DNA from: Balanoglossus misakiensis
Lineage: Eukaryota > Animalia > Hemichordata
Reading direction: 5' to 3'
Assembly (NCBI GenBank): GCA_040954595.2
Contig: CM082579.2
Coordinates: 12,773,834-12,837,833, forward strand
Length of the DNA: 64,000 nucleotides
Within the stretch, counting starts at the first letter, position 1; every line of letters starts with the position of its first letter. Below, piece after piece: positions 6,981 to 43,754 of this stretch. The translations under genes and the position numbers were made by a program. The notes under the pieces were generated by a model that saw nothing but the letters and a program-made list of their open reading frames with translations, did no database searches and was not told the DNA's origin.

Positions 6981-8046
6981 ATGGCGTGGTATCCCGGAAA
7001 GCGTGGACGCCCGGCTACCACGAGTTCCGCCAAGAAGAGAAAACAGCTGAAGAGTAATGCGCTCAAACGTAGCTGTAAAATATACATTGGAACACAGATC
7101 GGAAGATGGCGAGATTTGCAGGAGGAGACGGGACTTTCATGTCCTGATTTGGCGGCAGAGTTGATAGATAGGTAAGTAGTTTGGTTCGCAGTTTGCACTA
7201 GTATTACCGGTCGCTGTTTACCATGTCGACAGTGTCGTCGCGTACGCGTGTTACTCACTTCATTCTTTCAAACGTTCAAGAAAATTATGTTTACAGAAAA
7301 TCATTTCGTGCTGTCAAAATGTTTGGTAATACCACTCAGACTGTTTCGTGGGAAATTAAAACTAAGCTGTATCAGATATCCGGCAATCTTGTCGGAGAAC
7401 ATGGCGTAGTCAATAGTCGTATTCAAAGACAAGTTGTCTTTGTTGGGTTTGGTCAGCTGTTTGATAGATACCATGGAAATTTTAACAATCGTCTTGTCTA
7501 TCCCTTTTTTCTCAATTACAACAACACCTACCACGTAAAGTTATCACAGAACTAGTAGTAGTAAAGCGTTGGTGAGCCAAGCAGTCCCACTCATGAATGA
7601 ACCAGTGCCGAGTTCAAGTTCGAGTGGGCATTCATCTCCTGAAAGAAATGTTGAACTACAAAATAAGGATTCATCATCACCTTTGTGTGGTCACAGGTAA
7701 AGAATGATTTTCATTATTTGTAACCTATCAATGACTTGTGAAATGTAAACATTTCCCTGGGATTTTGAGTATAATTTTTGGAGTGACCATGGTGCGTGTA
7801 ATGGAACAAAAATTTGTTGTTTATTGAGTCAACACCTTTTTAAAAGAAAAGAATGAAGTTTACAATTACATATGGGAAATCTGTGCAGCTGTTAGGATAT
7901 GCAAAGCAAACTATATGCCTTTAATGATTAGGGTCATGATATGTCTTTATTAAAAGATACATGTACTACTTGTAATTACACTTATGTTTGTTTCACACCT
8001 TGATCACTTATTTCTATCTCTGAAGGAAACATATCCCCAAGCAACC

Positions 8047-8433
8047 TGTAGTAACCTCGATGTGCCGTCTCTAATGGCGCCCTAATTCACATCAAAGGTC
8101 ACAGGGTTCTATAGAGTTTGCCGTTAACTAACTGGAGCTCACCATCGCCGACGAACATTCCTTGTCAGATGTCACAGAAAACGCTGATCGGAACTTTACA
8201 CGAACATTTAATGACTGAACATACAACACTGGCACTGGATGATGCGTCGCGGTGGTTGAAGTTTCCGTAGAAAACTGGCAAAAATCCCCAGGCTAACTGT
8301 GCAAATGTCCTCACATGTGCGCCATGGAATTTTCCAGATATTTTCTAAACAAAAGCGCATGCGCTAATGTCCTCACAGCGCGAGGGCGCTAGACTAAATA
8401 TTTCAGTTTCTCTAAGAACTGGGCGTCCTTACA
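8047..8433 (-). repeat. 3' LTR of BEL-1 (387 bp)
   Basis: Direct repeat of 16963-17347. By eye it differs by one substitution and one 2-bp indel. Confidence 0.97.
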
Positions 8434-11400
8434 CCAGCCCCCAAATTGTTCATGAAAAAACATTAACAATTTTCATCCTAGCAAATTCAAAACGCCAACA
8501 TCCATATGTGCCGAAATTTCATAACAAATAGAAATTACAAAACAATATCTATAAATTGAAACGCGAAGTCGAAAAAGTTTTTCAGGAAACGCAAATACAA
8601 GAATCCTTTTCTTCATGAATGTGATGATACATCCTAGACCATGCCCAGACCTCGTCCGGTCAGTCATGCTGCCAAGCATGATATCCAACACATCTGTACT
8701 TCAAAGATGAGATCAAACGCTGGACGTAGTGGATTGACTGGCCACTACTTGAGATCGTTGTTATTACAGCTGCTGGTAACTGCAACCATACCAATACCAC
8801 TAAGTCTGTGCTTCCAACAATGTGCACAACTTATCATATGGTCTTTCTAAAACATTGGATCTGGTCTTCACCAATACCCGTCGCACCACCCCTTTCCGAT
8901 CAGGCATAACTTTGATGATTACACCCAAAGGCCAAGCATTTCTGGAGGTGTTCTCATCCTTCACCAATACCACGTCCCCAACGTGTAAGTTTTTCTTGAC
9001 TTTCAACCATTTTTGCCTTTCTTGCAGAGAAGGTAAGTATTCCTTCGTCCATCTTTTCCAGAACAAATCTGACAGATACTGAACTTGCTTCCATCTATGT
9101 ACAGCATACAAGTCCTTCTTCTCCGTCACACCAGGGGGTGTTGCTGCTCCCTTCATAGTAAGCAACATACTGGGTGTCAATGCTTTTAAGTCTCTAGCGT
9201 CGTCCGACGATACTGTAATCGGGCGGCTATTAATAGTATGCTCCACTTCACACAGGAAAGTCTGTAGACTATCATCTGTCAGCTGTTGCTGCCTAACTAT
9301 GACGTTCAGCAACTGTCTGATAGTGCGAATTTGTCTTTCCCATACTCCACCAAAATGGGATCCATAGGGCGGGTTAAACTTCCATTCTTTGCCTGGTTCC
9401 ATTTCTCGAGCTCTTCCTTCAACACTCTATTCGCTCCTACAAAATTGGTACCATTATCAGATCTCATGGACTTCACTGGTCCCCTCCTGGATATAAATCT
9501 ATCTCCTCAACGCATTTATGAAAGAATCCGTACTAAGTGATTCCGCCATCTCTATGTGGACAGCGCGTATGGCTAAGCAAGTAAATATCACGCCATATCG
9601 CTTTACTGTACTCCTTTTCATCTTTACTTCGATAGGACCAAAGTAATCAACGCCAACATTGGTAAATGGTGGTTCATTCGACTGCAAATGATCAGCAGGC
9701 AAGTCTGCCATCTTCTGTTCACACAGTCTGGCTCGCTGACGTCTACAAGTTACACATTTACTGACCATATTTCTAGCTGCCGAGTTCGCACCTGGGATCC
9801 AATATTTCTCGCGTAACCTTGACAGGATGTAGGCTCGTCCAAAGTGTTGCCCTCGTTCATGTATTTCACGCAACAGCAACTCTGCAACATGCAAACACTT
9901 TGGTAAAATCGCGGGGTGCTTTGCTTCTTCTGCTACTGCGGACAAACTCAGACGTCCTCCTACGCGTAACAAACCATCTGCCCCCATGACAGGGTCCAGC
10001 CTATAGATGTTACTATTTCTTCGTGTCTTCTTATCAGTATAGTCATCCACTGACAAACTGTCAACGTCTCTGGGAAACGCTTGGCGTTGTACAAACTTGA
10101 CGATTGCAGTCTCTGCCGCATTCATGTCTTCCACTGTAATTTCATGCGGTCCATCTGTACGACGATTTTTGTTCTTGGCACATCTCAACAATGTGTCACC
10201 CACTTTGCGTATCCAGGCCACTGCTTTCTTCAGTTTATACCAACTGGAGTAGTGGTCTATCAATTTCTGAACCGTCTCCTCCGCATTAACGGACATGGAT
10301 CGATCCGCCCCTTTGTCAGGCGTCTGTCGTTCTCCCGAAACAACAGGTACTGTTCCCAACACAACGGGTACAGTTTCTTCTTCCGATCTCAAAGATATTC
10401 TATGCACTAGTGCAGATTTCTTCACCTCTGGATCTTCTGGATCTAGCTGTGTATTGTAGCTATCACTTGGCCAGTTGTCTTGTGTCTTCCGCAAGAAATC
10501 AGGACCACCTATCCATCTTTCGTTCTTCAGAAAAGCATCTATTTTCTGACCTCTAGAGCACTCATCTGCCGGGTTGTCACTGGTATTAATGTAGCGCCAG
10601 TTCGCTGGGATTGATCCTCCTCGAATCACTGCTAGTCTATTCGCCACGAAGGTATGAAATCTTGTGGTTTCGTTGTTTATGTACCGCAGCACGGTTTTGC
10701 TATCCGTCCAAAACACGGATTTATTGATTGGCAAATCCATCTCCTTTCTGAGAAGTTTGTCAAGCCTCACTGCTACAGTAGCTGCAGTTAATTCCATTCA
10801 TGGAATCGATATTTGCTTCAATGGAGCCACTCTTGCTTTGGCCATCATCAAAGTGCTGTGGATGTTTCCGCTTTTGTCGATCAACCTAAGATACGATACA
10901 GCGCCATAACCATTTTCGCTGGCATCAGCAAAGTGATGTAGCTGAGCTGTGTCTACTTCACCAAAGTGCTCGGGCTTTATACATCTGGGTACTGCGAAAC
11001 ACTCTTCTAATTTTGGTAGATCACTCAACCAATTCTCCCACACTTTGCGTTGTTTTCCAGGAATATCATCATCCCAGCCTAGTTTTGCTTTACACAACTG
11101 CTGCAAAAGCATCTTGGGTGGCAGAAGCGCTGGTGCTGCCATGCCCAGTGGGTCATATAATGAACTAACCACTCCCAGAATTCCTCGTCTGGTCGCTGGT
11201 TCCTCTTTAGTACGATTTCTGAATCCGAATTCATCAGATTCCACGTTCCACTGCATACCGAGTGCATGCTCCGTGGGCAAGTCATCTTGCTCCAAGTCTA
11301 AGTTCTTCACCTCTGTCGCCCTTTGTTCTTCAGGTATTGCTTCCAAAACTGGACGTGCATTGCTGATCCACTTTGTGAGCTTGAACCCTGATTTCTTACA

Positions 11401-13473
11401 GGTGTCTGTCAGCCCTTCAGCCAAAGTCTTTCCTTCCATCACTGTTGATGCTGCCTTCAACATATCATCAACGTAGAAGTTTCTAGATATGGTGTTCTTG
11501 ACACTCAGATCAAAAGTATTGTCTGAAGCTTTCTTCAACGCGAAGTTTGCACAACTGGGTGACGATGTAGCCCCGGAAATGTGCACTGTCATTCGGTACT
11601 CGACAGGAGGTTCCTCTACATTACCATTAGGCCACCACAGAAAACGCTGGAAATCTCGGTTTTCTTGCGACACGCCAACTTGAGAGAACATAGCCTCTAT
11701 ATCTGACATCAGTGCTATCCACTCTTCACGAAAACGTATAAGCACTCCTACAAGTGAACTGGTCAGATCCGGTCCTTGCATCAACTCCTTGTTCAAAGAA
11801 GTTCCCTTGTATTCTGCACCACAGTCGAAGACTACCCGGATTTTCTGTTTCTGTGGATGGTATACTCCATGATGGGGAAGATACCATTCTTTCCAGGAAT
11901 GCCTTCCAATTCTTCCTGTGGCACCCTTTCAGCATAGCCTTTGTCTATAATACTTTCCATGAAGGTAGAATATTCTTGACGATAGTCATCGATGTTTCTA
12001 AATTTCTTTCCCAACTGAGAAAGCCGATATTCTACTGCCACTTTGTTGTTTGGCATCTTAACACCGTCATCACGAAACGGTAATGGCACCTGATAATGAC
12101 CATCAACAAACTGCGTTTGTTCGTACGCAATCTTCATGAACTTTCTATCTTCAACCGAATCTTCGGGTTTGTCATCTATGATACGCTCGCTGAACTCGTG
12201 ATTGAAGAGGTTGATTAACTGCTGATCAATCGCCGGTCCAACTTGTATTCTACAAACTGTTGCGGCAGTTTCATTTTCTGACACGTCAGCCTCCGTAAGG
12301 AAACCATTTACGAACCAGCCTAAACGGGTACGTACAGCAAATGGTCCATCTCCATTACTGTTTATCACTTCCCATGGTTCAAATGCTTCAGGAACGTTAC
12401 CACCGATGAGTAGGCCGCATCTATCTCAGGCAGGCGTACCTTACGCAAATAAGGATACTTGCCAATGTCATCTTGCGTAACGATGAGATCTTTCGAAGCA
12501 GGAATTTTCTCTTGCGTATATGTAGCTGGAAGTTTGATGATGTAATGCTCATCAAGATCTGAAACTTCTTGACCCTTGATAACACGACTATCAGCTGATT
12601 TACTTCCAGTGATAGTGTTCAGCATAATCTTTGTTTTCTTACCACCGACGTTCAGTTGTCGACGAAGTGTTTCCGTACAGAATACTGTGTCACTGCCGTT
12701 GTCAATAAAGGCGTACGTTTGTACACTAAGACCACTCGATCTACATTTGACCTTGACGGGAATAATCACGGGTTTATATGCACACTCTCCATTCCCCGCA
12801 GATCCACATGATGCGTCAATCATCCCCACATTCGTTAACACAGGTTTTCCAGACTGGTCTTTGGTTTTGTTGAAGTGCAACACGGTCAGATGCATCTTGC
12901 CACATTTTCCACAAGTCAACTTGCTTGTACAGTCTTTCACCATATGTTTTCCATTTTTCAGGCAACCAAAACATAACCCTTTCGTTTTTATGAGCCGTTT
13001 TTTGTCATAGTAAGCCTTGGAGGCAAACACTTGCAAGTCTTGAATTACATGTGTACTGTCTGCACAACACAAACACGGAGTAACAGTCTCTGTGCTGACT
13101 GTGTAGGTGTTGCGTCTTTGTGTACCACTAGTTGCTTTCTTGATGTTCTTTGCTTCCTTGTCCTTGGATGGAATGCCGGCGAGGTTACCAAACACCTCTT
13201 GGGACATTATCTTGGCTTCCCTGTTGACAAATTCCACAAGATCTTTGAACAGCACTGATCGTTGTTGTACGATGCTGTATGTTCTGCTGCGCCATCGGTC
13301 TCTCAACTTGAAAGGCAGTTTGTAAACCAACATTTGCAAGATTTTGTAGTGGTTGAGCTCTCTCAGATGTGATTCACCTTTCATAGCATTTTCACATTTG
13401 GTCAAGAAAAGAGCGAAATCTTTCAAGGCAGTCTTATCCTCGGATTTCAATTCCGGCCAATCTTCTGCTTGCT

Positions 13474-15129
13474 ATAGCTGACGCTTTTAATTCTTTTTTT
13501 GTCAACATTGGACAAAATCTAGCATCACAAATACATTGTAGCACTAATTTCAATGATTACCTTGGTATTCGTCATTTTAATTCTTTCTTTTTCCATTCTG
13601 TGCATCCTGGTGATATACTCAGAGAAATTAATTTATTAGACCATTGTAAAGCTGCTGGTTTTGATGAAATATATCCAAAACTTGTAAAGGAAGCAGCTGA
13701 TTATATTACAGAACCATTTGCTCATATTGTTAATATTTCCTTGTCACAGGGTATTTTTCCAGAGAAACTGAAAATGGCAAGAGTAACACCAATTTTTAAA
13801 AAGGGCTGTGTTCATGAAATAGGAAACTACAGACCTATCTCTGACTTGCCAATATTTAGTAAGCTGTATGAGTCTATTATAAATAAGCAACTGTGTTCTT
13901 TTTTCGAAAAATTTGATATTCTCACTAACAGCCAATATGGATTTCGTAAGAAATATAGTACTAAGTTAGCTTTAGCAGATCTCACAACTGAAATATCAAA
14001 GCACATTGATAACGGTCTTGTTACCTTTGGTATCTTTATTGATTTTAAACAGGCATTTGATACGATTAACCACACAATTTTGTTAGCTAAGCTATGCCAC
14101 TATGGGATTAGGGGATCCACACTTAATTGGTTTAAGACTTATATAGAAGACCGACAGCAGTATGTCAAGGTCAATAATTGCACTTCAAAAGCGAAAAGGA
14201 TCTCCTGTGGGATTCCACAGGGATCAATTCTAGGTCCACTTCTTTTTTTAGTATATATAAATGATATCTGCAGTTCCTCAGACTATTTTCAATTCAGGTT
14301 ATTTGCTGACGATACCAATTTATTTTGTTCAGATAAGCAGGAGAAAATTGATCTTGCCACTCTGAATGTTGAGCTAACTAAAGTACAGACCTGGTGTAAG
14401 TCAAATAAACTTACTATTAATATTGACAAAACAAACTATGTTATTTTCAAAACAGCCCAGGCGAAGTTTAAGCCTGAGGGAGATTTATATGTCTCTGATT
14501 TACCATTACATAATGTTTCTTCTGCTGTTTATCTTGGAGTTACTCTTGACTCATCATTATCCTGGAAGTCTCACATCAACATTATTTTTAAGAAGGTTAG
14601 CCAAAAAATCGGTATTATTTCATATGTACGCCATTATCTCCCTAAGTATATAATTTTATTATTATACAATTGTCTTATCCTTCCCCATATAATGTATTGT
14701 ATCGAAATATGGGGAAATGCGTATAAAACCTATTTAGATTGTATTTTCAAATTGCAAAAGAGACTTGTAAGACTTATAACATTTTCTAGCCCCAATACAC
14801 ATAGCGCACCACTTTTTCAGCAACTTGGAATTCTTAATGTTTACAAACTCTGTAAATTTCAAACTTGTGTTTTTGCGTATGATCTAAAGGCAGGGCATTA
14901 CGCCCACTCACTAGATCGCTATGCTTCATTTGTATCACACAAATATTTTACAAGATTTGCCTCTACTGATAAGTTTACGCTTCTCAAAGTAAAACTTACT
15001 TCATCTCAAAATAATTTATACTATTCTATTGCCAAGCATTGGAATGAAATTCCCACACAAATAAAATCAATTCAATCAAGGAATTTATTTAAAAGCTCTC
15101 TGAAAATGTATCTGTTGAGCATAGATTAA
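13474..15129 (+). CDS. LINE reverse transcriptase, 5'-truncated but uninterrupted frame
   Basis: IADAFNSFFVNIG, NYRPIS, QYGFR, DFKQAFDT, GIPQGSILGP, LFADDT and YLGV motifs. Confidence 0.92.
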   Translation: MADAFNSFFVNIGQNLASQIHCSTNFNDYLGIRHFNSFFFHSVHPGDILREINLLDHCKAAGFDEIYPKLVKEAADYITEPFAHIVNISLSQGIFPEKLKMARVTPIFKKGCVHEIGNYRPISDLPIFSKLYESIINKQLCSFFEKFDILTNSQYGFRKKYSTKLALADLTTEISKHIDNGLVTFGIFIDFKQAFDTINHTILLAKLCHYGIRGSTLNWFKTYIEDRQQYVKVNNCTSKAKRISCGIPQGSILGPLLFLVYINDICSSSDYFQFRLFADDTNLFCSDKQEKIDLATLNVELTKVQTWCKSNKLTINIDKTNYVIFKTAQAKFKPEGDLYVSDLPLHNVSSAVYLGVTLDSSLSWKSHINIIFKKVSQKIGIISYVRHYLPKYIILLLYNCLILPHIMYCIEIWGNAYKTYLDCIFKLQKRLVRLITFSSPNTHSAPLFQQLGILNVYKLCKFQTCVFAYDLKAGHYAHSLDRYASFVSHKYFTRFASTDKFTLLKVKLTSSQNNLYYSIAKHWNEIPTQIKSIQSRNLFKSSLKMYLLSID

Positions 15130-15353
15130 TTTAACCTCTTTTATAAACCTGTTTACTTTGTCACCGCGTTGTTTGACTACCAACTATTGTTTTGTGATAT
15201 GAATTGGCAATTATATTAATTGTTTCAATGATTTGTATGTATTTAGGGCCAGGGACACGACTAGTTCCACTAGAACTACTTCCCTGGTCCGCACCAGTTA
15301 TGTAAAATGCATCTTTCTGGTGATATAAAACTATCTAGCAGACTAGCAGACTA
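13474..15353 (+). mobile_element. 5'-truncated CR1/L2-group LINE inserted antisense in BEL-1 gag
   Basis: Removing it restores gag (AYTKQAEDWPELKS). GCT lies on both sides. It has a 3' UTR stem-loop (15246-15290) and a (ctagcaga)n tail. Confidence 0.92.
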
Positions 15354-16951
15354 GCTTGGTGTAGGCTCTGGCCGTCACGTATGGATTGCCGAACTCAGTT
15401 TCAAGCAATTTTCTGGCTCTTTCGTATCCTTCATTCGCTTCAATGTGAATGCAACTGCTCACTATTTCTCTCGGTTCACCACGTGTATACTGCTCCAAGT
15501 AATACAAACGATCATCAGGATCTTCAGTGTTGGATTCTATGCCATGCCGAAAGGCACGTATAAATGATTTATACTGCAATGGGTCCCCATCGAACACGGG
15601 TATCGATTGCGGCGGTAAAGCGGCACGCTTGTTATGCTCAATCAACAGTTTAGTAACTGTGGCTAGGTTATGATCACTACAGGAACTGTGGCTGCTATTG
15701 CTACTTGTACACGAACCAAGGTCAGGACTGAATTTTGTCTGCTTGTTTACATCGGGTTTTCCTTTTTCTGAACTGCATACAATGCTGTCGACAGGACTAT
15801 CAGACTTAGTAACATTGGGACTATCACATGTGTGGAAACTACCCAAGTTGCTAGCACTTGAACTCTTCATCTTGATGTTGCCCCGAAATGCAGCGGGTGT
15901 CTTGAAGAGATCTTGTAGGTTGTATTCCTGTAAACTACTTTCATCTTCACCATTTTTCAAAATGACGATACACTTCGATTATTGCATTCTGTTCAGCAAT
16001 TTCTGTTTTGATTTCCAACAATTGTTTTTGTTTGTTTATTTTGGATTCCAATTCGTCTAATTTCTGTTTTTCCTCCAAACCTGCCATACGAGTCATCAGT
16101 TCCGCCCGTTTCACTGCGGCTGCAATTATAGATGCCTTGCTATTAATACTACTACCACGTGAGGACACGTGTGATGACACTCTGCTTGATCTTGCTGATT
16201 TAAATCTAGGTGTCTTACTACCAATGTAGGACACGCTATCTTCTGGCTTCACAGTGTCTGCCAACATGGAATCATGCAGCCCATGGCGAAATAGCCAGGT
16301 GTCAACTACATGCCGAAATTCATCAAACCCAGTCATACGTGGTAATGACCAACTGGTATACATATGTTGTTTTTCTTTTTCATCCAATGACTCATGGTAT
16401 TTGACATCAGCCTCTTTGAAGTTTTCAAAGGCAACATCACATTCTTTCATTTTAGTTTTCACCAAAATACCATTGACTTTATCTTCCATCAGAGATGTTA
16501 TCTGATTCATCAATGTTGTTACTCTACCATAGATGTGTGATCTGGTAGTTTTCAATCTTTCTCTTTCAGCTTCTTTGTGCTTGTCTGTTTTTATGGAGAC
16601 ACGCTTGGTGTTTTCTGGATTACCAGTAAACAAATCATTTTTCTCTGTTTCCACCATGACCTTTGTATCATCATTGGTGGCCATTTTGCTTCTTATTCTG
16701 TATAAATTCACTGTGCTGAATGATACCCAATGCGCCCTGTACGTACGATATGCGCGGTCGAGTACTAGTATGACACAATGACCTTGAAGTTTCTGACATG
16801 CGCAGTGGCGTCTTGATCACGTATGCCAGTTTTCCTCGGCTGAACCGAGACCAATGTACTGCTAGACGGGAAAATACTGATAATAAATCGCTGTCCTACC
16901 AGATTCTTTCTACCAATCTTCAGAAGGTGACAGTTTCTGCCCGGTCGTTCA

Positions 16952-16962
16952 CAGTTTTCTAC
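16952..16962 (-). promoter_or_regulatory. Non-tRNA primer-binding site GTAGAAAACTG directly after the BEL-1 5' LTR
   Basis: No TGG start. It is the exact reverse complement of an 11-mer inside both LTRs (17183-17193 and 8267-8277). Confidence 0.75.
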
Positions 16963-17347
16963 TGTAGTAACCTCGATGTGCCGTCTCTAATGGCGCCCTA
17001 ATTCACATCAAAGGTCACAGGGTTCTATAGAGTTTGCCGTTAACTAACTGGAGCTCACCATCGCCGACGAACATTCCTTGTCAGATGTCACAGAAAACGC
17101 TGATCGGAACTTTACACGAACATTTAATGACTGAACATACAACACTGGCACTGGATGATGCGTCGCGGTGGTTGAAGTTTCCGTAGAAAACTGGCAAAAA
17201 TCCCCAGGCTAACTGCAAATGTCCTCACATGTGCGCCATGGAATTTTCCAGATATTTTCTAAACAAAAGCGCATGCGCTAATGTCCTCACAGCGCGAGGG
17301 CGCTAGACTAAATATTTCAGTTTCTATAAGAACTGGGCGTCCTTACA
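16963..17347 (-). repeat. 5' LTR of BEL-1 (385 bp)
   Basis: Direct repeat of 8047-8433. ATTAAA poly(A) signal on the sense strand at 17123-17128. Confidence 0.97.
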
Positions 17348-17819
17348 CAACCTACAACATCAACACCAGTAGGTCAGCAACTGATTGCTGGTAAAATGTC
17401 TATGTCAGAGTTGTCATCCATCCCGTCCACTGATCAGGGGTAAGATTTCTTTCTCTAGTGATTGGAGTCTCTCATGCAAACAATCAAGTCCAACTTTTTT
17501 GCATCAGGATTCATGTAAAATAAAAATACTGTTAAGTGTTTTGAGCAGTTATAGGATGTAATGGATTTAATTTAGGCATTTATCAGGGTGGAAAATTGGT
17601 GCTTTTACGTTGGCAACTATTGCTATTGTTATCAATCATGTTATCCATTTCAAAGTCAGACTATAAATGATTTGTTATGTTATGCTCACCATATTTTTCA
17701 TTTTTTGTAATCCATTGATATGATGTCAGGAGTTGAAGGACTGCCCGATATACAACACCAAACACAAACAGAACCATCAACAAGCTACATGTGTAAATTT
17801 TTTTTATCACAGCTTAATT

Positions 17820-20800
17820 AGGGCCCAAGCGCACGCAAGCGCTTGGGCCCTATTGGTTTCGTTGGAATTTTTCTTTCTTGCTTGCTTTCTTTAGGGCCCA
17901 AGCGCAAGCAAGCGCTTGGGCCCTATTGGTTTCGTTGGAATTTTTCTTTCTTGCTTGCTTTCTTTCTTTCTTTCTTTCTTTATTCTTGTGTCAATTCTTC
18001 GGCCAACTAAATCTCAGAAACTACTGCAGGTACACTGCTCAAACTTGCTACAGTGGTCAAGGTCAATGAGTAGATGTGCAGTGATTTGTGAATACTTAAT
18101 TAGTCACGTGACCTGGCGGCCATATTGGATTTTCTGAAAAAATGCAAATCTCAGATCTCAGAAACTACAAGTCAGATCGACTTCAAATTTGGCATGCAGG
18201 TAGACTACCTTCTGCCCATCATTTTTGTAATTGGAAATTTTGCTGTCAATGTTGCAGTTTTTTTGCTACAATTTTTTTTCTGAAATCTGGCTTAAATTTC
18301 AAAAATCTTCTTCTCCAGAACCGGTGATAACCGAGACACGGGGTTTGGGGTATGTGGTCACCTAACTGATGTCTATCAAGTTTGCGAAGATCATTGTGAT
18401 TGGTCGGAGATTTTGGCGGCCATATTGGATTTTCGAAAAACCATAGTTAAACTCCAAAAATCTTCTTCTCCAGAACGGGGGATGACTGAGTCGCAAGATT
18501 CGGGGAGTATGGTCACTACACTGATGTCTATCAAGTTTGCAAAGAGCATTGTGATTGGTCGAAGATTATGGCGGCCATATTGGACTTTGTAAAAAGCAGT
18601 GAAAATTTGAAATTCCTTTTTCTAGTCTAAAAATTGACAGCATACAAATTCTTTTATGGATATCAATCGTCATGTGACTAAAATATGTTACAATTTTTTG
18701 GCGATTTTTCACATGACCTTTGACCTACTTATCACGCATTATTATCTGCATATCTAATTCCAGGCTAACCTATAGGGCTAGACGTTTGGTTTTTGATGAA
18801 TGTGGATTAGTGTGTGATCAAAAATATTTTGCTACTTTTCATGACCCCTTTGACCTCTGCGGACCTCATTAATTATGTGCATAGCTAATTACAGGCGAAC
18901 TAATAGAGCTAGAGGTTTTGTTTTTGTTGGACATGGACCAGTATGGGATCAAAATTTTTTGCCCAAATGTTGGGTGACCTCTGGTGACCTTTGACCTACT
19001 TTCGCATATCTCAGCATCCAGAGCAGATACAGCCATGGCATTTGGTAGGATGGGACCAAAATGTAAAGCCACATTTTTGGGTCACCTGTGACACCTGCTG
19101 ACCTCATTAAATATGCACATACCTAATTACAGCCGAACCAATAGAGCTACAGTTTTGCTTTTTGTTGGACATGGACCAGTATGGGTAAAAAAAAAAGTGA
19201 CCTTAGGTGACCTTTCACCTACTTCACCCTATTTCAGCAGCAAAAATAGACACATCCTTGTTATGTCATGGGATAATACATCCGATAGAAAATTCTGTTT
19301 CTTCTCATTCATACTGTGCATATATAATTCAAGATCAGCGCTTGGGCCCGACAATGCTGCTCGCAGCTTTAATTAGGGCCCAAGCCAAGCCAGGCTTGGG
19401 CCCTATTGGTTTCGTTGGTATTTTTAGGGCCCAAGCGCATACCAGCGCTTGGGCCCTATTGGTTTCGTTGGGGTTTTTTAGGGCCCAAGCGCATACCAGC
19501 GCTTGGGCCCTATTGGTTTCGTTGGGGTTTTTCTGTCTTTCCTTCTTTCTTTATTCTTCTGTCATTTCTTTGTCGCTCTAGATCTCAGACACCGCTGCAG
19601 GTACACTTCTCAAACTTGCTACAGTGGTCAAGGTCAATGGGTAGTCGTGCATTGAACTCTTGAATTTTTAATTAGTCACGTGACATGGCGGCCATATTGG
19701 ATTTTCTGAAAAAATGCAAATCTCAGATCTCAGAAACTACAAGTCAGATTTACTTCAGATTTGGTGTGCTGGTAGTGTACCTTCTGCCCATCATTTTTGT
19801 AATTGGATATTTTGCTGTCAATGTTGCAGTTTTTTTGCTACAATTTTTTTTCTGAAATCTGGTCAAAATTTCAAAAATCTTCTTCTCCAGAACCGGCAAT
19901 AACCGAGTCACGTGGTTTGGGGTATGTGGTCACCTAACTGAGGTCTATCAAGTTTGCGAAGATCATTGTGATTGGTCGAAGATTATGGCGGCCATATTGG
20001 ATTTTCGAAAAACCCTAGTAAAATTTCAAAAATCTTCTTCTCAAGAACCGGCGATAACTGAGTCACAAGATTTGGTGTGTGTGGTCATTAAACAGATGTC
20101 TATCAAGTTTGCGAAGGTGAATGTGATTGGTCGAAGATTATGGCGGCCATATTGGATTTTAGAAAAACCATAGTTAAACTCCAAAAATCTTCTTCTCCAG
20201 AACGGGCGATGAGTGAGTCGCAAGATTCGGGGAGTATGGTCACTACACTGATGTCTATCAAGTTTGCAAAGAGCATTGTGATTGGTCGAAGATTATGGCG
20301 GCCATATTGGATTTTGTAAAAAGCAGTGAAAAATTGAAATTCCTTTTTCTAGTCTAAAAATTGATAGCATACAAATTCTTTTTATGGATATCAATCGTCA
20401 TGTGACTAAAATATGTTACAATTTTTTGGCGATTTTTCACATGACCTTTGACCTACTTATCACGCGTTATTATTTCTGCATATCTAATTCCAGGCTAACC
20501 AATAGGGCTAGACGTTTGGTTTTTGATGAATGTGGATTAGTGTGTGATCAAAATATTTTGCTACTTTTCATGACCCCTTTGACCTCTGCTGACCTCATTA
20601 ATTATGTGCATAGCTAATTACAGGCGAACCAATAGAGCTAGAGGTTTGGTTTTTGTTGGACACAGACCAGTATGGGATCAAATTTTTTTGCCCAAATGTT
20701 GCATGACCTCTGGTGACCTTTGACCTACTTTCGCATATCTCAGCATCCAGAGCAGATACAGCCATGGCATTTGGTAGGATGGGACCAAAATGTAAAGCCA

Positions 20801-23800
20801 TATTTTTGAGTCACCTGTGACACCTGCTGACCTCATTAAATATGCACATACCTAATTACAGGCGAACCAATAGAGCTAGAGTTTTGTTTTTTGTTGGACA
20901 TGGACCAGTATGGGTCAAAAAAAATTGCCCAAATGTTGGGTGACCTCAGGTGACCTTTGACCTACTTCACCCCATTTCAGCAGCAAAAATACACACATCC
21001 TTGTTATGTCATCAGATAATACATACGATAGAAATTTCTGTTTTTTCTCATTTATACTGTGCATATATAATTCAAGATCAGCGCTTGGGCCCGACAATGC
21101 TGCTTGCAGCTTTAATCTTTCTTTCTTTCTTTCTTTCTTTCTTTATTCTTCTGTCATTTCTTTGTCGCTCTAGATCTCAGACACCACTGCAGGTACAGTT
21201 CTCAAACTTGCTACAGTGGTCAAGGTCAATGAGTAGTCGTGCATTGAACCCATGAATTTTTAATTAGTCACATGACCTGGCGGCCATCTTGGATTTTCTG
21301 AAAAAATGCAAATCTCAGATCTCAGAAACTACAAGTCAGATCGACTTCAAATTTGGCGTGCAGGTAGACTACCTTCTGTCAAACATTTTTGTAATTGGAA
21401 ATTATGCTGTCAATGTTGCAGTTTTTTTGCTACAATTTTTTTTCTGAAATCTGGCTTAAATTTCAAAAATCTTCTTCTCCAGAACCGGTGATAACCGAGA
21501 CATGGGGTTTGGGGTGTGTGGTCACCTAACTGATGTCTATCAAGTTTGCGAAGATCATTGTGATTGGTCAAAGATTATGGCGGCCATATTGGATTTTCGA
21601 AAAACCCTAGTAAAATTTCAAAAATCTTCTTCTCGAGAACCGGCGATAACCGAGTCACAAGATTTTGTGTGTGTGGTCATTCAACAGATGTCTATCAAGT
21701 TTGCGAAGAGGAATGTGATTGGTCGAAGATTATGGCGGCCATATTGGATTTTGTGAAAAACGATTAAAAAGTAAAAATTCCCTTTCTAGCCTAAAAATTG
21801 ATAGCACAGAAATTCTTTTTATGGATATGAATCATCATATAACAAGAATAAGCTATAAATATTTTGGTAATTTTGGCAATGACCTTTGACCTACTTTTGA
21901 CGCATCAATTTTCTGCATATCTAATTCCAGGCTAACCAATAGGGCTATAAGTTTGGTTTTTGATGTATGTGGATTTGTATGTGATCAAAAAATTTTGGTA
22001 CTTTTCATGACCCCTTTGACCTTTGCTGACCTCATTAAATATGCACATACCTAATTACAGATGAAACAATAGACCTAGAGGTTTTGTTTTTGTTATACAG
22101 GACAAGTATGGGGTCAAAATTTTTTACCCAAATTTTGGGTGGCCTCTGGTGACCTTTGACCTAATTTCGCAAATCTCAGCATCCACAGCAGATACAGCCT
22201 TGGCGTTTGGAGGTATGGGGCCATAATGAAAAGCCAAAGTTTTGGGTCACCTGTGACACCTGCTTAACTCATTATTTATGTGCATACCTAATTCCGGGCT
22301 AACCAAAAGGGGTAGAGATCTGGTTTTTGTTGGACATGGACCACTATGGGTCAAAATTTTCTGCCCAAATTGTGGGTGACCTCTGGGTGACCTTTGACCT
22401 ACTTAACAGTATATCAACACCAAACATAGATGTAAACTTGATATTTCATGGGATAAAACACAGCATTATGTTTCTACTCATTAATTATGTGCATATCTAA
22501 TAATCAGATCAGATAATAGAGCTTGGGCCCGGACAATGCTGCTTGCAGCTTTAATTCAGTCTTTCTTTAGGGCCCAAGCGCAAGCCAGCGCTTGGGCCCT
22601 ATTGGTTTCGTTGGGGTTTTTCTGTCTTTAGGGCCCAAGCGCATACCAGCGCTTGGGCCCTATTGGTTTCGTTGGGGTTTTTCTTTCTTCTTTCTTTCTT
22701 TATTCTTGTGTCAATTCTTTGTCGCTCTAGATCTCAGACACCGCTGCAGGTACACTTCTGAAACTTGCTACAGTGGTCAAGGTCAATGAGTAGTCGTGCA
22801 TTGAACCTGTGAATTTTTAATTAGTCACGTGACCTGGCGGCCATATTGGATTTTCTGAAAAAATGCAAATCTCAGATCTCAGAAACTACAAGTCAGATCG
22901 ACTTCAAATTTGGTGTGCAGGTAGTCTACCTTCTACCCATCATTTTTGTAATTGGATATTTTGCTGTAAATGTTGCAGTTTTTTTGCTACAATTTTTTTT
23001 CTGAAATCTGGCTTAAATTTCAAAAATCTTCTTCTCCAGAACCGGTGATAACTGAGTCACGCGGTTTGGGGTATGTGGTCACCTAACTGATGTCTATCAA
23101 GTTTGCGAAGATCATTGTGATTGGTCGAAGATTATGGTGGCCATATTGGATTTTCGAAAAACCATAGTAAAACTTCAAAAATCTTCTTCTCAAGAACGGG
23201 CGATAACCGAGTCACAAGATTTGGTGTGTGTGGTCATTAAACAGGTGTCTATCAAGTTTGCGAAGGGGAATGTGATTGGTCGAAGATTATGGCGGCCATA
23301 TTGGATTTTGTGAAAAACGATTAAAAAGTAAAAATTCCTTTTCTAGCCTAAAAATTGATAGCACAGAAATTCTTTTTATGGATATGAATCATCATATGAC
23401 AAGAATAAGCTATAAATATTTTGGTAATTTTGGCAATGACCTTTGACCTACTTTTGACGCATCATTTTTCTGCATATCTAATTCCAGGCTTACCAATAGG
23501 GCTATAAGTTTGGTTTTTGATGTATGTGGATTTGTATGTGATCAAAAAATGTTGCTACTTTTCATGACCCCTTTGACCTCTGGTGACCTCATTAAATATG
23601 CGCATACCTAATTAATGATGAACCAATACACCTAGAGGTTTTGTTTTTGTTATACATGGACCAGTATGGGGTCAAAATATTTTGCCCAAATGTTGGGTGA
23701 CCTCGGGTGACCTTTGACCTACTTTTGCATATCTCGACATCCACAGCAGATACAACCTTGGCGTTTGGAGGTATGGGGCCATAATGAAAAGCCAAAGTTT

Positions 23801-26800
23801 TGGGTCACCTTTGACACCTGCTTAACTCATTATTTATGTGCATACCTAATTCCGGGCTAACCAAAAGGGCTAGAGGTCTGGTTTTTGTTGGACATGGACC
23901 ACTATGGGTCACAATTTTCTGCCCAAATTGTGGGTGACCTCTGGGTGACCTTTGACCTACTTAACACTATATCAACACCAAGCATAGATATAACCTTGAT
24001 ATTTCATGGGATAAAACACAGCATTATGTTTCTACTCATTAATTATGTGCATATCTAATAATCTGATCAGATAATAGAGCTTGGGCCCGGACAATGCTGC
24101 TTGCAGCTTTAATTCTTTCTTTCTTTCTTTCTTTTTTCTTGTGTCAATTCTTTGTCGCTCTAGATCTCAGACACCGCTGCAGGTACACTTCTGAAACTTG
24201 CTACAGTGGTCAAGGTCAATGAGTAGATGTGCATTGAACCCTTGAATTTTTAATTGGTCACGTGACCTGGCGGCCATATTGGATTTTCTGAAAAAATGCA
24301 AATCTTAGATCTCAGAAACTACAAGTCAGATCGACTTCAAATTTGGTGTGCAGGTAGTCTACCTTCTACCCATCATTTTTGTAATTGGATATTTTGCTGT
24401 CAATGTTGCAGTTTTTTTGCTACAATTTTTTTTCTGAAATCCAGCTTAAATTTCAAAAATCTTCTTCTCTAGAACTGGTGATAACCGAGACACGGGGTTT
24501 GGGGTATGTAGTCACCTATCTGATGTCTATCAAGTTTGCGAAGATCTTTGTGATTGGTCGAAGATTATGGCGGCCATATTGGATTTTCGTAAAACCTTAG
24601 TAAAATTTCAAAAATCTTCTTCTCAAGAACCGGCGATAACCGAGTCACAAGATTTGGTGTGTGTGGTCATTAAACAGATGTCTATCAAGTTTGCGAAGAG
24701 GAATGTGATTGGTCGAAGATTATGGCGGCCATATTGGATTTTGTGAAAAACGATTAAAAAGTAAAAATTCCCTTTCTAGCCTAAAAATTGATAGCACAGA
24801 AATTCTTTTTATGGATATGAATCATCATATGACAAGAATATGCTATAAATATTTTGGTAATTTTGGCAATGACCTTTGACCTACTTTTGACACATCATTT
24901 TTCTGCATATCTAATTCCAGGCTAACCAATAGGGCTATAAGTTTGGTTTTTGATGTATGTGGATTAGTGTGTGATCAAAATATTTTGCTACTTTTTGTGA
25001 CCCCTTTGACCCCTGCTGACCTCATTAAATATGCACATACCTAATTAATGATGAACCAGTAGACCTAGAGATTTTGTTTTTGTTATACATGGACCAGTAT
25101 GGGGTCAAAATATTTTGCCTAAATGTTGGGTGACCTCGGGTGACCTTTGATCTACTTAACACTATATCAGCATCAGATCAGATAATAGAGCTTGGGCCCG
25201 GACAATGCTGCTTGCAGCTTTAATTCTTTCTTTATTCTTATGTCAATTCTTTGTCGCTCTAGATCTCAGACACCACTGCAGGTACAGTTTTCAAACTTGC
25301 TACAGTGGTCAAGGTCAATGAGTAGTCGTGCATTGAACCCATGAATTTTTAATTATTCACGTGACCTGGCGGCCATATTGGATTTTCTGAAAAAATGCAA
25401 ATCTCAGATCTCAGAAACTACAAGTCAGATCGACTTCAAATTTGGTGTGCAGGTAGTCTACCTTCTACCCATCATTTTTGTAATTGGAGATTTTGCTGTA
25501 AATGTTGCAGTTTGTTTGCTACAATTTTTTTTCTGAAATCTGGCTTAAATTTCAAAAATCTTCTTCTCCAGAACCGGTGATAACTGAGTCACGCGGTTTG
25601 GGGTATGTGGTCACCTAACTGATGTCTATCAAGTTTGCGAAGATCATTGTGATTGATCGAAGATTATGGCGGCCATATTGGATTTTCGAAAAACCATAGT
25701 AAAACTTCAAAAATCTTCTTCTCCAGAACGGGCGATAACCGAGTCACAAGATTTGGTGTGTGTGGTCATTAAACAGATGTCTATCAAGTTTGCGAAGGGG
25801 AATGTGATTGGTCGAAAGATATGGCGGCCATATTGGATTTTGTGAAAAACGATTAAAAAGTAAAAATTCCTTTTCTAGCCTAAAAATTGATAGCACAGAA
25901 ATTCTTTTTATGGATATGAATCATCATATGACAAGAATAAGCTATAAATATTTTGGTAATTTTGGCAATGACCTTTGACCTACTTTTGACACATCATTTT
26001 TCTGCATATCTAATTCCAGGCCAACCAATAGGGCTATAAGTTTGGTTTTTGATGTATGTGGATTTGTATGTGATCAAAAAATTTTGCTACTTTTCATGAC
26101 CCCTTTGACCTCTGCTGACCTCATTAAATATGCACATACCTAATTACAGATGAACCGATAGACCTAGAGATTTTGTTTTTGTTATACATGGACCAGTATC
26201 GGGTCAAAATATTTTGCCCAAATGTTGGGTGACCTCGGGTGACCTTTGACCTACTTTTGCATATCTTGACATCCACAGCAGATACAGCCTTGGCGTTTGG
26301 AGGTATGGGGCCATAATGAAAAGCCAAAGTTTTGGGTCACCTGTGACACCTGCTTAACTCATTAATTATGTGCATACCTAATTCCAGGCTAACCAAAAGG
26401 GCTGGAGGTCTGGTTTTTGTTGGACATGGACCACTATGGGTCACAATTTTCTGCCCAAATTGTGGGTGACCTCTGGGTGACCTTTGACCTATTTAACACT
26501 ATATCAGCACCAAACATAGATATAACCTTGATATTTCATGGGATAAAACACAGCATTATGTTTCTATTCATTAATTATGTGCATATCTAATAATCAGATC
26601 AGATAATAGCGCATGGGCCCGGACAATGCTGCTTGCAGCTTTAATTAGGGCCCAAGCGCATACCAGCGCTTGGGCCCTATTGGTTTCGTTGGGGTTTTTC
26701 TGTCTTTCTTTCTTTTTTCTTGTGTCATTTCTTTGTCGCTCTAGATCTCAGACACCGCTGCAGGTACACTTTTCAAACTTGCTACAGTGGTCAAGGTCAA

Positions 26801-29800
26801 TGGGTAGTCGTGCATTGAACTCTTGAATTTTTAATTAGTCACGTGACATGGCGGCCATATTGGATTTTCTGAAAAAATGCAAATCTCAGATCTCAGAAAC
26901 TACAGATCAGATTTACTTCACATTTGGTGTGCTGGTAGGGTACCTTCTGCACATCATTTATGTAATTGGATATTTTGCTGTCAATGTTGCAGTTTTTTTG
27001 CTACAGTTGTTTTTCTGAAATCTGGTCAAAATTTCAAAAATCTTCTTCTCCAGAACCGACGATAACCGAGTCACGCGGTTTGGGGTATTTGGTCACCAAA
27101 TTGAGGTCTATCAAGTTTGCGAAGATCATTGTGATTGGTCGAAGATTATGGCGGCCATATTGGATTTTTGAAAAACCCTTGTAAAATTTCAAAAATCTTC
27201 TTCTCAAGAACCGGCGATAACCGAGTCACAAGATTTGGTGTGTGTGGTCATTAAACAGCTGTCTATCAAGTTTGCGAAGAGGAATGTGATTGGTCAAAGA
27301 TTATGGCGGCCATATTGGATTTTGTGAAAAACGATTAAAAAGTAAAAATTCCCTTTCTAGCCTAAAAATTGATAGCACAAAAATTCTTTTTATGGATATG
27401 AATCATCATATGACAAGAATAAGCTATACATTTTTTGGTAATTTTGGCAATGACCTTTGACCTACTTTTGACTCATCATTTTTCTGCATATCTAATTCCA
27501 GGCTAACCAATAGGGCTATAAGTTTGGTTTTTGATGTATGTGGATTTGTATGTGATCAAAAAATGTTGCTACTTTTCATGACCCCTTTGACCTCTGCTGA
27601 CCTCATTAAATATGCACATACCTAATTAAAGGTGAACCAATAGACCTAGAGGTTTTGTTTTTGTTATACATGGACCAGTATGGTGTCAAAATATTTTGCC
27701 CAAATGTTGGGTGACCTCGGGTGACCTTTGACCTACTTTTGCATATCTTGACATCCACAGCAGATACAGCCTTCGCGTTTGGAGGTATGGGGCCATAATG
27801 AAAAGCCAAAGTTTTGGGTCACCTGTGACACCTGCTTAACTCATTATTTATGTGCATACCTAATTCCGGGCTAACCAAAAGAGCTAGAGGTCTGGTTTTT
27901 GTTGGACATGGACCACTATGGGTCAAAATTTTCTGCCCAAATTGTGGGTGACATCTGGGTGACCTTTGACCTACTTATATCAGCACCAAACATAGATATA
28001 ACCTTGATATTTCATGGGATAAAACACAGCATTATGTTTCTACTCATTAATTATGTGCATATCTAATAATCAGATCAGATAATAGAGCTTGGGCCCGGAC
28101 AATGCTGCTTGCAGCTTTAATTCTGTCTTTCTTTCTTCTTTCTTTATTCTTCTGTCATTTCTTTGTCGCTCTAGATCTCAGACACCACTGCAGGTACAGT
28201 TCTCAAACTTGCTACAGTGGTCAAGGTCAATGAGTAGTCGTGCATTGAACCCATGAATTTTTAATTAGTCACATGACCTGGCGGCCATCTTGGATTTTCT
28301 GAAAAAATGCAAATCTCAGATCTCAGAAACTACAAGTCAGATCGACTTCAAATTTGGCGTGCAGGTAGACTACCTTCTGGCAAACATTTTTGTAATTGGA
28401 AATTATGCTGTCAATGTTGCAGTTTTTTTGCTACAGTTGTTTTTCTGAAATCTGGTCAAAATTTCAAAAATCTTCTTCTCCAGAACCGGCGATAACCAAG
28501 TCACGCGGTTTGGGGTATGTGGTCACCAAACTGAGGTCTATCAAGTTTGCGAAGATCATTGTGATTGGTCGAAGATTTTGGCGGCCATATTGGATTTTCG
28601 AAAAACCCTAGTAAAATTTCAAAAATCTTCTTCTCAAGAACCGGCGATAACTGAGTCACAAGATTTGGTGTGTGTGGTCATTAAACAGATGTCTATCAAG
28701 TTTGCGAAGATGAATGTGATTGGTCGAAGATTATGGCGGCCATATTGGATTTTGTGAAAAACGATTAAAAAGTAAAAATTCCCTTTCTAGCCTAAAAATT
28801 GATAGCACAGAAATTCTTTTTATGGATATGAATCATCATATGCCAAGAATAAGCTATAAATATTTTGGTAATTTTGGCAATGACCTTTGACCTACTTTTG
28901 ACGCATCATTTTTCTGCATATCTAATTCCAGGCTAACCAATAGGGCTATAAGTTTGGTTTTTGATGTATGTGGATTTGTATGCGATCAAAAAATTTCGCT
29001 ACTTTTCATGACCCCTTTGACCTCTGCTGACCTCATTAAATATGTGCATACCTAATTACAGATGAACCAATAGACCTAGAGGTTTGGTTTTTGTTGGACA
29101 TGAACCAGTATTGGGTCAAATTTTTTGCCCAAATGTTGGGTGACCTCGGATGACCTTTGACCTACTTTTGCATATCTCGACATCCACAGCAGATACAGCC
29201 TTGGCGTTTGGAGGTATGGGGCCATAATGAAAAGCCAAAGTTTTGGGTCACCTGTGACACCTGCTTAACTCATTATTTATGTGCATACCTAATTCCGGGC
29301 TAACCAAAAGGGATAGAGGTCTGGTTTTTGTTGGACATGGACCACTATGGGTCAAAATTTTCTGCCCAAATTGTGGGTGACCTCTGGGTGACCTTTGACC
29401 TACTTAACACTATATCAACACCAAACATAGATATAACCTTGATATTTCATGGGATAAAACACAGCATTATGTTTCTACTCATTAATTATGTGCATATCTA
29501 ATAATCTGATCAGATAATACAGCTTGGGCCCGGACAATGCTGCTTGCAGCTTTAATTCTTTCTTTCTTTCTTTCTTTATTCTTGTGTCAATTCTTCGGCC
29601 AACTAAATCTCAGAAACTACTGCAGGTACACTGCTCAAACTTGCCACAGTGGTCAAGGTCAATGAGTAGATGTGCAGTGATTTGTGAATAATTAATTAGT
29701 CACGTGACCTGGCGGCCATATTGGATTTTCTGAAAAATTGCAAATCTCAGATCTCAGAAACTACAAGTCAGATCGACTTCAAATTTGGTGTGCAGGTAGA

Positions 29801-30986
29801 CTACCTTCTACCCATCATTTTTGTAATTGGATATTTTGCTGTCAATGTTGCAGTTTTTTTGCTACAATTTTTTTTCTGAAATCTGGCTTAAATTTCAAAA
29901 ATCTTCTTCTCCAGAACCGGTGATAACCGAGTCACGGGGTTTGGGGTATGTGGTCACCTGACTGATGTCTATCAAGTTTGCGAAGATCATTGTGATTGGT
30001 CGAAGATTATGGCGGCCATATTGGATTTTCGAAAAAGCATAGTTAAACTCAAAAAATCTTCTTCTCCAGAACGGGCGATGACTGAGTCGCAAGATTCGGG
30101 GAGTATGGTCACTACACTGATGTCTATCAAGTTTGCAAAGAGCATCGTGATTGGTCGAAGATTATGGCGGCCATATTGGATTTTGAAAAAAGCAGTAAAA
30201 AATTGAAATTCCTTTTTCTAGTCTAAAAATTGATAGCATACAAATTCTTTTTATGGATATCAATCGTCATGTGACTAAAATATGTTACAATTTTTTGGCG
30301 ATTTTTCACATGACCTTTGACCTACTTATCACGCGTTATTATTTCTGCATATCTAATTCCAGGCTAACCTATAGGGCTAGACGTTTGGTTTTTGATGAAT
30401 GTGGATTAGTGTGTGATCAAAATATTTTGCTACTTTTCATGACCCCTTTGACCTCTGCTGACCTCATTAATTATGTGCATAGCTAATTACAGGCGAACCG
30501 ATAGAGCTAGAGGTTTGGTTTTTGTTGGACATGGACCAGTATGGGATCAAAATTTTTTGCCCAAATGTTGGGTGACCTCTGGCGACCTTTGACCTACTTT
30601 CGCATATCTCAGCATCCAGAGCAGATACAGCCATGGCATTTGGTACGATGGGACCAAAATGTAAAGCCACATTTTTGGGTCACCTGTGACACCTGCTGAC
30701 CTCATTAAATATGCACATACCTAATTACAGGCGAACCAATAGAGCTATAATTTTGGTTTTTGTTGGACATGGACCAGTATGGGTCAAAAAAATTTGCCCA
30801 AATGTTAGGTGACCTCAGGTGACCTTTGACCTACTTCACCCTATTTCAGCAGCAAACATACACACGTCCTTGTTTTGTCATGAGATAATACATCCGATAG
30901 AAAATTCTGTTTCTTCTCATTCATACTGTGCATATATAATTCGAGATCAGCGCTTGGGCCCGACAATGCTGCTCGCAGCTTTAATT
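17820..30986 (+). mobile_element. Array of 9 non-autonomous Helentron-like elements (HINE/DINE-1 architecture), about 1.1-1.6 kb each, in a transposase intron
   Basis: 5' hairpin agggcccaagc..gcttgggccct, (cttt)n microsatellite and internal 120-bp repeats. The 3' end has subterminal gcttgggccc plus hairpin gctgctYgcagc-tttaatt. Insertions are in T-rich sites with no TSD. Heads at 17820, 17893, 19375, 19426, 19480, 22569, 22630, 26647. 3' ends at 19374, 21116, 22556, 24114, 25225, 26646, 28122, 29557, 30986. Confidence 0.85.
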
Positions 30987-35724: not shown

Positions 35725-36443
35725 GTGGATTGAAAACCATATTGGTGCATTCCATTGTTGGTAGTTGTACGGCGTACACTTTGAGAAAGGGTTCAGGGAG
35801 TGGAGAGGGACGAATGGCCGGGAAGTGAGACTCGATGCGTGAGTTGTGGTTACCAAATTCAAGTCTGTTTATTGTACATTTAGTCAAGCTATATATACGT
35901 GTCGGTGAACTTTGGCATTTGTTCACACCTGGTACAAAAGGTTTGGTGACCGGCGTCACACAGGTAGCAAATAAAGAGATTACATGTCTGATGAACGAAT
36001 TACATGTCTGACAGACAAATCGTGGGCGGAGTCTATAATATGCCGTGTGTGGTCTCCGACATCCTCCCGCCCGCAAGAAATTACAGATAAACTATGAATA
36101 AACATCAAAAAGGAAGTGCGAAAAACTTCTTAATCTCATAAACAAGACATTTATGCACTTGCAAAAACGATATGTAATACTCTTCGTTAATCTCAGACTT
36201 CAATTAACTAAGGAATAACCTGTTATAACAGGTGATAAATCTCGAAATTAGAAAAGACGTCAGGAAACTTAATTAACCTAGGCAACAAGTGAAACAAAGC
36301 TCGCAATACAATGAAATGCTCTCAATACAATGAAATTTCAACAAAAAATTGAATGCACAAATAATGCTACAAGGAAAGATCTCTCATTGTTTAAATATCA
36401 CACATGAATCGTGTAACAATGTCAGTACACTGAAATTGCATTA

Positions 36444-41742: not shown

Positions 41743-41758
41743 CCTGGTCTCGGCACCA
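41741..41758 (-). promoter_or_regulatory. tRNA primer-binding site of BEL-2, probably tRNA-His
   Basis: TGGTGCCGAGACCAGGAT, 5 nt after the 5' LTR. It is one mismatch from the complement of the invertebrate tRNA-His 3' end as I recall it, and it overlaps the gag ATG. Confidence 0.8.
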
Positions 41759-43103: not shown

Positions 43104-43754
43104 ATACGGTTATTCACAAAATACCGGGATTTATGTCCGCGTACATCGTGCAGCGCAGGTATTGTCCGAGACGCGCAGCGTCGAGGACAATACCGAAGCG
43201 TACGATGTACGAGGACATAAATCCCGGTATTTTGTGAATAACCTTATTATTATACACCTTTTTCGGACGTCCTTGATGAACGATAAAGAATAAATAGGCC
43301 GCTATCGGACTTTCTAGTTTTCAGACGCCACCATGATGTAATTTGCATATCGAACGCGCCTTCACCTCGCGCATCAGGTGATGCTAGTGTCGAACTGCCT
43401 GTCTCGCGCGCGACGTTCTACGCTGCTTCGCTGAAATGAACGCGCTCGCCTGTTGTTCACAGATTCCTTCCACTGAAATTTCAGCGTGGATTTTAACTTA
43501 TTTCGCATCTTGGGTCACCAATAATTTTTTTTTAATAACGGCTGTGTACTTTTTATATAAATTTTTGTCAGAGTAGGGTTAATATCATTGTTTACATTGA
43601 TCACCGGTCCTGTGAGGTCAAAGTCACAATGCGTCCAATAACCCTGTGGGTTATGGGACTCCGCGTCCTCATTTGAATAATTATTGTACGGTGATACCGC
43701 GAATTATTGTATCACGGAACTCCATAGGTTACAGCAGTAGGTGTATAATAATAC
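43104..43754. mobile_element. Non-autonomous Crypton-like element with a terminal 136-bp hairpin
   Basis: Palindrome 43108-43243 is followed by tattattatacacct, whose reverse complement aggtgtataataata marks the other end. Same layout as the adjacent YR-coding element. Confidence 0.7.

Follow-up and report, generated by a model that had tools for sequence, protein, structure and literature searches.

A BEL/Pao retrotransposon of Balanoglossus misakiensis with a predicted LTR-derived self-primer, and relatives in which an intron appears to split the primer segment

BEL-1 is a BEL/Pao retrotransposon on the minus strand of a 64-kb stretch of Balanoglossus misakiensis DNA (64,000 nt; hereafter, the window). 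Directly behind its 5' LTR, it carries a short site that lacks the TGG of a tRNA-type primer-binding site and is instead the exact complement of a segment inside its own LTR. Comparison with relatives suggests that BEL-1 belongs to a widespread BEL/Pao clade of aquatic animals with a self-complementary site after the LTR. The primer of this clade is very likely derived from the LTR, whether it acts in cis or in trans, and reverse transcription is probably primed by the cis fold-back of the element's own LTR RNA segment. What stands out most is that the relatives are predicted to build their primer by splicing; the window copy is simpler, intron-less, and broken.

The BEL-1 Element

The following features of BEL-1 were mapped in the window:

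16963 to 17347, minus strand: 5' LTR, 385 nt, TG...CA, with no intron at the primer segment
8047 to 8433, minus strand: 3' LTR, 387 nt, 99.2% identity with the 5' LTR
17348 to 17352, minus strand: target-site duplication on the 5' side (GGTTG); the same 5-nt duplication flanks both LTRs
8042 to 8046, minus strand: target-site duplication on the 3' side (GGTTG)
16952 to 16962, minus strand: primer-binding site, 11 nt, without TGG, directly after the 5' LTR; GTAGAAAACTG
17183 to 17193, minus strand: predicted self-primer segment, the exact complement of the primer-binding site, beginning with CA; LTR positions 155 to 165
8267 to 8277, minus strand: second copy of the primer segment, inside the 3' LTR
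17123 to 17128, minus strand: ATTAAA, predicted poly(A) signal, 54 nt past the 3' end of the primer and 65 nt from the start of the 11-mer
8434 to 8442, minus strand: G-rich sequence resembling a polypurine tract, before the 3' LTR
15343 to 16684, minus strand: 5' part of gag in two broken frames, resembling the N-termini of full-length homologues
8800 to 13471, minus strand: remaining gag and pol (protease, RT, RNase H/A17, integrase, and DUF5641), with stops and frameshifts
13472 to 15342, plus strand: fragment of a LINE-type RT, inserted antisense in gag (RVT_1, E=2e-33); boundaries approximate

Both LTRs start with TG and end with CA, and the differences between them amount to one substitution plus a 2-nt indel. 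The window copy is a broken element, with stops, frameshifts, and the antisense LINE fragment in gag. BEL-1 is a BEL/Pao element, identified by its pol domains, and departs from the ICTV profile of this group in its primer site. Pfam detected Peptidase_A17 (E=1e-36), Integrase_H2C2, and DUF5641, in this order, and the homologues of BEL-1 carry DUF1759, RVT_1, A17, rve, and DUF5641. The LTR features of BEL/Pao elements are also present, including a length within 0.2–1.2 kb, TG...CA ends, a target-site duplication, and a polypurine tract; comparable G-rich tracts occur in the relatives. No chromodomain family was matched in BEL-1 by Pfam and the pol is of the Pao type, so the element is not a member of the Tf1/sushi group. 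Rfam gave no match within 16700–17500, a sequence search of the PDB gave no match, and ARAGORN predicted no tRNA gene in the 64-kb window.

Other features were observed in the window. A tandem array of nine units of 1.1–1.6 kb with internal 155-nt repeats lies directly upstream of BEL-1 (17970–30650). A 512-aa frame on the minus strand (44626–46164), with matches to DUF3504, a tyrosine recombinase, and QRICH1, is presumably Crypton-like. Two further arrays consist of a partly palindromic 21-nt unit in 23.6 copies (46764–47260) and a 63-nt unit in 11.6 copies with 99% matches (59446–60175). Two near-perfect, MITE-like hairpins have arms of 46 and 52 nt (43104–43247 and 43843–44035), and the regions 56280–57636 and 60507–61931, both on the plus strand, contain fragments with weak matches to TNP-like transposases, together with a 474-aa frame in which an integrase-core domain (rva_4) was detected.

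The Primer-Binding Site and Its LTR Complement

A preliminary description of this DNA had reported a missing TGG and an exact 11-nt complement after the 5' LTR; both were confirmed, with all coordinates correct. The self-match is exactly 11 nt long and fails on extension to 12, and within the window the 11-mer occurs only in the primer segments and the binding site of BEL-1. The chance expectation for a match of this length, which had been estimated at about 1e-4, was recomputed as 1.1e-4 from base composition and 1.4e-4 under a dinucleotide model. The nearest TGG downstream of the 5' LTR is 47 nt away, and the duplex of primer and site has a predicted energy of -13.0 kcal/mol. The ATTAAA motif, placed earlier about 65 nt beyond the start of the 11-mer, does start at 17128.

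BEL-2, the contrast element in the same window, was likewise found to have a TGG-type site, as had been proposed. Its features are as follows:

41764 to 42059, minus strand: 5' LTR of BEL-2
35766 to 36061, minus strand: 3' LTR of BEL-2, with the target-site duplication ACTAC
41741 to 41758, minus strand: TGG-type (tRNA-type) primer-binding site of BEL-2, with the TGG 5 nt after the LTR

The self-complementarity of BEL-2 extends to only 5 nt, and its primer-binding site may resemble the 3' end of tRNA-His.

Variation among sequenced copies was surveyed in contigs from three DNA runs of one sample; such contigs show presence, not absence. Other letters were seen at many positions of the LTR and the leader, including the base just before the segment, and none inside the LTR 11-mer, where these contigs also had no joint or loose end. 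In run X2, a different base is listed at one loose-end cell within the binding site, and the LTR has no corresponding change among those listed.

Self-Complementarity in Relatives

The RT region of BEL-1 has thousands of homologues, with 53–67% identity among the at least 120 matches listed. The hosts named among the listed homologues include amphioxus, echinoderms, a hemichordate, fishes, a sea anemone, and a scallop. Twelve loci were taken from genome_contigs and, out of 538 in metagenome_contigs, the best 80 were added; direct repeats were mapped in all 92, and no relatives were found in viral_contigs. Nearly complete BEL/Pao elements were present in contigs filed under bacterial MAGs (L001, L003, L004, L005, L007, and L009), and these contigs are most likely animal host DNA that was binned by mistake. 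ARAGORN detected two tRNA genes in the 30 relative loci submitted to it, both in one locus.

A strict test was applied to the window element and 11 loci with a repeat-defined LTR end and a whole readable LTR copy. L043 (the same element as L045), L009 (of the L035 family), and L036 and L053 (diverged LTR ends) were left out at this point and entered the later tests. None of the 12 elements had a TGG within 6 nt of the LTR, and perfect self-complementarity of 10–15 nt, starting 0–5 nt after the LTR, was found in 11 of the 12. With the same scoring, a match of at least 10 nt appeared in 3 of 128 cross pairs (none of 11 nt) and in 2 of 240 own-leader decoys. The 12 helices have sharp ends, and 137 of their 138 pairs are Watson-Crick, with no G-U pair; the one mismatch is in L005, which pairs at 10 of 11 positions, across a junction. 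The pairing length is narrow across elements, with a mode of 11 nt. Among the 21 non-duplicate elements, 19 different primer strings were counted, each with its own matching post-LTR site, so that the check for compensatory change proposed in the preliminary description was passed; these counts are not fully independent because several relatives share one primer sequence.

These matched changes on both sides largely refute an alternative that we regard as very improbable, namely a chance match in the window at a site whose real partner would be half of a host tRNA or a fragment from within one. Half-tRNA primers are known in copia lineages, according to the accessible part of PMC6317226, but the chance of the match is 1e-4 in the window, and the pairing is repeated in 11 of 12 elements as compared with the controls. 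Furthermore, 19 different strings in 21 elements cannot all equal one conserved tRNA end. The anticodon loop is marked by U33 and a purine at position 37, and the 3' end of the window primer, judged by eye, misfits this pattern.

The helix could also be a regulatory RNA structure, such as one that holds back polyadenylation at the 5' LTR or helps in packaging, with priming by other means, for example by a host RNA that binds nearby. Long-range helices are common in the leaders of retroelements, and this one lies 0–97 nt from the poly(A) hexamer. On the other hand, the helix begins 0–5 nt after the LTR end in every case, which is the exact position of a primer, and no TGG site is present there in any of the 12 elements. 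Structural helices usually tolerate G-U pairs, whereas none was found among the 138 pairs here. A purely regulatory role is therefore considered quite unlikely.

Several loci of different families (L014–L016, L021, L024, L025, L027, L029, L031, L033, and L041) have nearly one binding-site sequence, which contains the palindrome TTCGAA, a motif that also occurs in the T-loops of tRNAs. This shared site could permit cross-priming or contacts between RNA dimers.

A Predicted Intron in the Primer Segment of Relatives

In 8 of the 11 matching elements of the strict test, the match is obtained only after a GT donor is joined to a pyrimidine-rich AG acceptor inside the LTR, and the best unjoined match in these elements is 6–8 nt; the remaining three are contiguous. 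Between the close relatives L001 and L003, a difference where exon 1 ends is mirrored in the binding site by the corresponding change. A boundary-free search was run on every locus whose gag start could be read, 65 out of 92, and 49 of these contained a candidate junction. Pairing of at least 11 nt across the junction was found in 19 of the 65 loci, and all 19 matches lie 0–5 nt after ACA or ATA, for which the background is 16%. Cross pairs reached 11 nt in 70 of 1216 cases, mostly between families with one common binding-site sequence. Many of the other 46 loci have short flanks and appear to be without a whole LTR. Considering the 21 non-duplicate elements together, an intron of 76–451 nt is predicted in 15, with 3–9 nt of the primer in exon 1 and 4–8 nt in exon 2.

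Contiguous pairing like that of the window was found in L050, L053, L068, L077, and L089 when 39 loci were checked. Contiguous matches of 10–11 nt in L020, L023, L027, L030, L051, L065, and L069 fall outside any recognisable LTR end and were put down to chance. An RT tree was built with 28 rows, namely the window element, 26 loci, and BEL-2 (L005 and L009 were dropped for their short segments). On this tree, the contiguous label is unclustered, and the six contiguous elements need five changes, at least two of which are forced by well-supported branches; gain and loss of the intron are not told apart. The preliminary description had proposed self-priming as in Tf1. This proposal is strongly supported by the matched changes, but it missed the predicted intron that splits the primer segment in most readable relatives. 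The window copy is one of the intron-less forms.

One weak intron candidate in the window LTR, with its acceptor inside the 11-mer, was rejected, as joining gives no better match. The start of the primer segment overlaps an acceptor-like run (T5-GC-CAG; 17197–17191, minus strand), and acceptors also stand directly or shortly before the segment in L017 and L077. An adaptation of the BEL-1 binding site to an acceptor left unspliced is thus a possible alternative to the precise loss of an intron.

Transcription Start, Polyadenylation, and RNA Folding

The pairing starts with CA in 13 of the 21 elements, against a background of 0.10 (nominal p 1e-8, uncorrected for kinship), which favours a transcription start at the segment, where the preliminary description had expected it (17192–17193). 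A start there is also favoured by the narrow range of pairing lengths, by helix probabilities that are highest for RNA beginning at this point, and by a somewhat higher A+T content 20–35 nt upstream. Three observations count against it: no TATA box was found near -30 of the pairing start in the 21 elements, 4 of 11 LTRs have TATA-like boxes 49–240 nt upstream, and the first exon would have the unusual length of only 3–9 nt. A poly(A) hexamer is located 0–97 nt downstream of the 3' end of the primer in 10 of 11 LTRs (none in L002), and this order would provide the geometry that is needed for strand transfer.

Folding calculations were not decisive for the helix. With window RNA beginning at 17193, different positions of the 3' cut gave helix probabilities of 0.98, 0.93, and 0.08, and the value drops to 0.01–0.13 when 40–100 nt of upstream sequence are added. 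A partial competitor pairing site lies at 16913. The folding energy of the whole leader is ordinary when compared with shuffles (z of 1.02 and 0.36), and a competitor site is used in the minimum-energy folds of these calculations. In forced folds, the U5 end pairs close behind the primer in L031, L035, L050, L068, and L002, and local hairpins form in others; flanking duplexes like those of the Tf1 "pretzel" structure are predicted in some forced folds only.

The primer might also be supplied in trans, by a short (spliced) LTR transcript. Made from either a 5' LTR or a solo LTR, this transcript would be packaged and pair with an unspliced genomic RNA. Such a supply fits all of the DNA pairing evidence equally well, and no single RNA would then have to be spliced at its 5' intron copy and left unspliced at its 3' copy. 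Short transcripts are plausible in those LTRs in which the hexamer follows closely, at 0–12 nt from the segment (L001, L003, L035, and L068). However, a cut at the end of the helix would still be needed, because in 10 of 11 LTRs the hexamer comes after the segment. Calculations also favour cis fold-back for RNA that begins with the segment, for which the helix probability is highest (0.89–0.99 in the shortest constructs). Supply in trans is accordingly regarded as rather unlikely.

Proposed Mechanism

Cis fold-back, the preferred reading, would proceed through the following steps. RNA polymerase II would start at or just before the segment, to which we assign about an even chance, or otherwise further upstream. 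In intron-bearing elements, splicing of the 5' intron copy would create the primer. The segment would fold back onto the site after U5, and the RNase H of the RT would, by analogy with Tf1, cut at the 3' end of the helix and leave a free 3' OH. The RT would copy U5 and the rest of R and would then jump to the identical R stretch that precedes the poly(A) site; the part of R between the cut and the poly(A) site would permit this first strand transfer. The new primer-binding site would be made as a copy of the primer, so that both halves would change together without wobble pairs.

More specifically, and with slightly less than even confidence, we suggest that the primer of the clade is built by the host spliceosome. 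Transcription would start 3–9 nt before the LTR intron, and splicing of the cap-proximal copy would yield a self-primer of about 11 nt. The copy in the 3' LTR would escape splicing, and the progeny would keep the intron; where this copy is occasionally spliced too, intron-less lineages such as BEL-1 would result, which offers a simple origin for the window type. Proximity to the cap is, as a speculation, one possible reason why only the 5' copy would be spliced.

If this is correct, a splice-made primer would put the start of reverse transcription under the control of host splicing, and two identical intron copies in one RNA would need different handling. It may also point to extremely short first exons. 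Furthermore, LTR finders that demand a tRNA site or a contiguous self-primer would miss or misannotate these elements.

Comparison With Known Systems

BEL-1 resembles the elements of the ICTV profile of Belpaoviridae in its Gag-PR-RT-RH-IN order, LTRs of 0.2–1.2 kb, polypurine tract, and metazoan host (PMC8742986). According to this profile, replication is poorly understood and is primed by a tRNA, at an 18-nt site that pairs with tRNA-Arg or tRNA-Gly of the host (PMC8742986). A tRNA site of this kind is absent in BEL-1 and in all 11 relatives with a defined LTR end, whereas BEL-2 has a TGG-type site. The term "PBS" is absent from the accessible main text of three BEL/Pao surveys (PMC3118150, PMC6238403, and PMC554778), and the accessible parts of PMC8220671, PMC6934838, PMC3601003, PMC4558846, and PMC3532108 are silent on the priming of BEL/Pao elements and on introns in LTRs. 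In the mainly open-access articles searched, no account of a self-primed BEL/Pao element or of an intron in a BEL/Pao LTR was found. Cer7 of C. elegans, also a BEL/Pao element, reportedly carries a primer-like sequence of its own, in the form of a tRNA-like extension that lies past the 3' LTR; it differs in this from BEL-1, in which the corresponding sequence is a segment of the LTR.

Tf1 and Tf2 of S. pombe, Tj1, Tosmo, and the Tf1/sushi group including plant Tcn1 (Ty3/gypsy chromoviruses) are similar to BEL-1 in having no tRNA site and a short LTR segment complementary to the post-LTR site, and also in its length, the self-primer of Tf1 being 11 nt. Two sources treat self-priming as demonstrated in Tf1 and as an inference for the Tf1/sushi group (10.1101/2022.12.06.519325, PMC4600332), and the latter cites work on the RNase H cleavage that releases the Tf1 primer. 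However, these elements belong to a different superfamily, as the pol of BEL-1 has A17 and DUF5641 and no chromodomain match. They also differ from the relatives of BEL-1, most readable ones of which have a segment split by a predicted intron; the accessible texts contain no such description for Tf1/sushi. BEL-1 would work like Tf1 but is not a member of its group.

Self-priming was also predicted for Tcn1 gypsy and TAR copia elements from an LTR complementarity of at least 10 nt located 0–5 nt after the LTR (accessible part of PMC6317226), and the same extent and position of complementarity were found in BEL-1 and its relatives. The TAR lineage of Ty1/copia (Houba and Osr-1) consists of plant copia elements, and the accessible part of that source describes no intron-split primer for it (PMC6317226). 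If the proposed priming is correct, a self-priming clade that extends over the hosts of the RT homologues (fishes, amphioxus, echinoderms, hemichordates, cnidarians, and molluscs) would represent a third independent origin of this mechanism, after Tf1/sushi gypsy and TAR copia.
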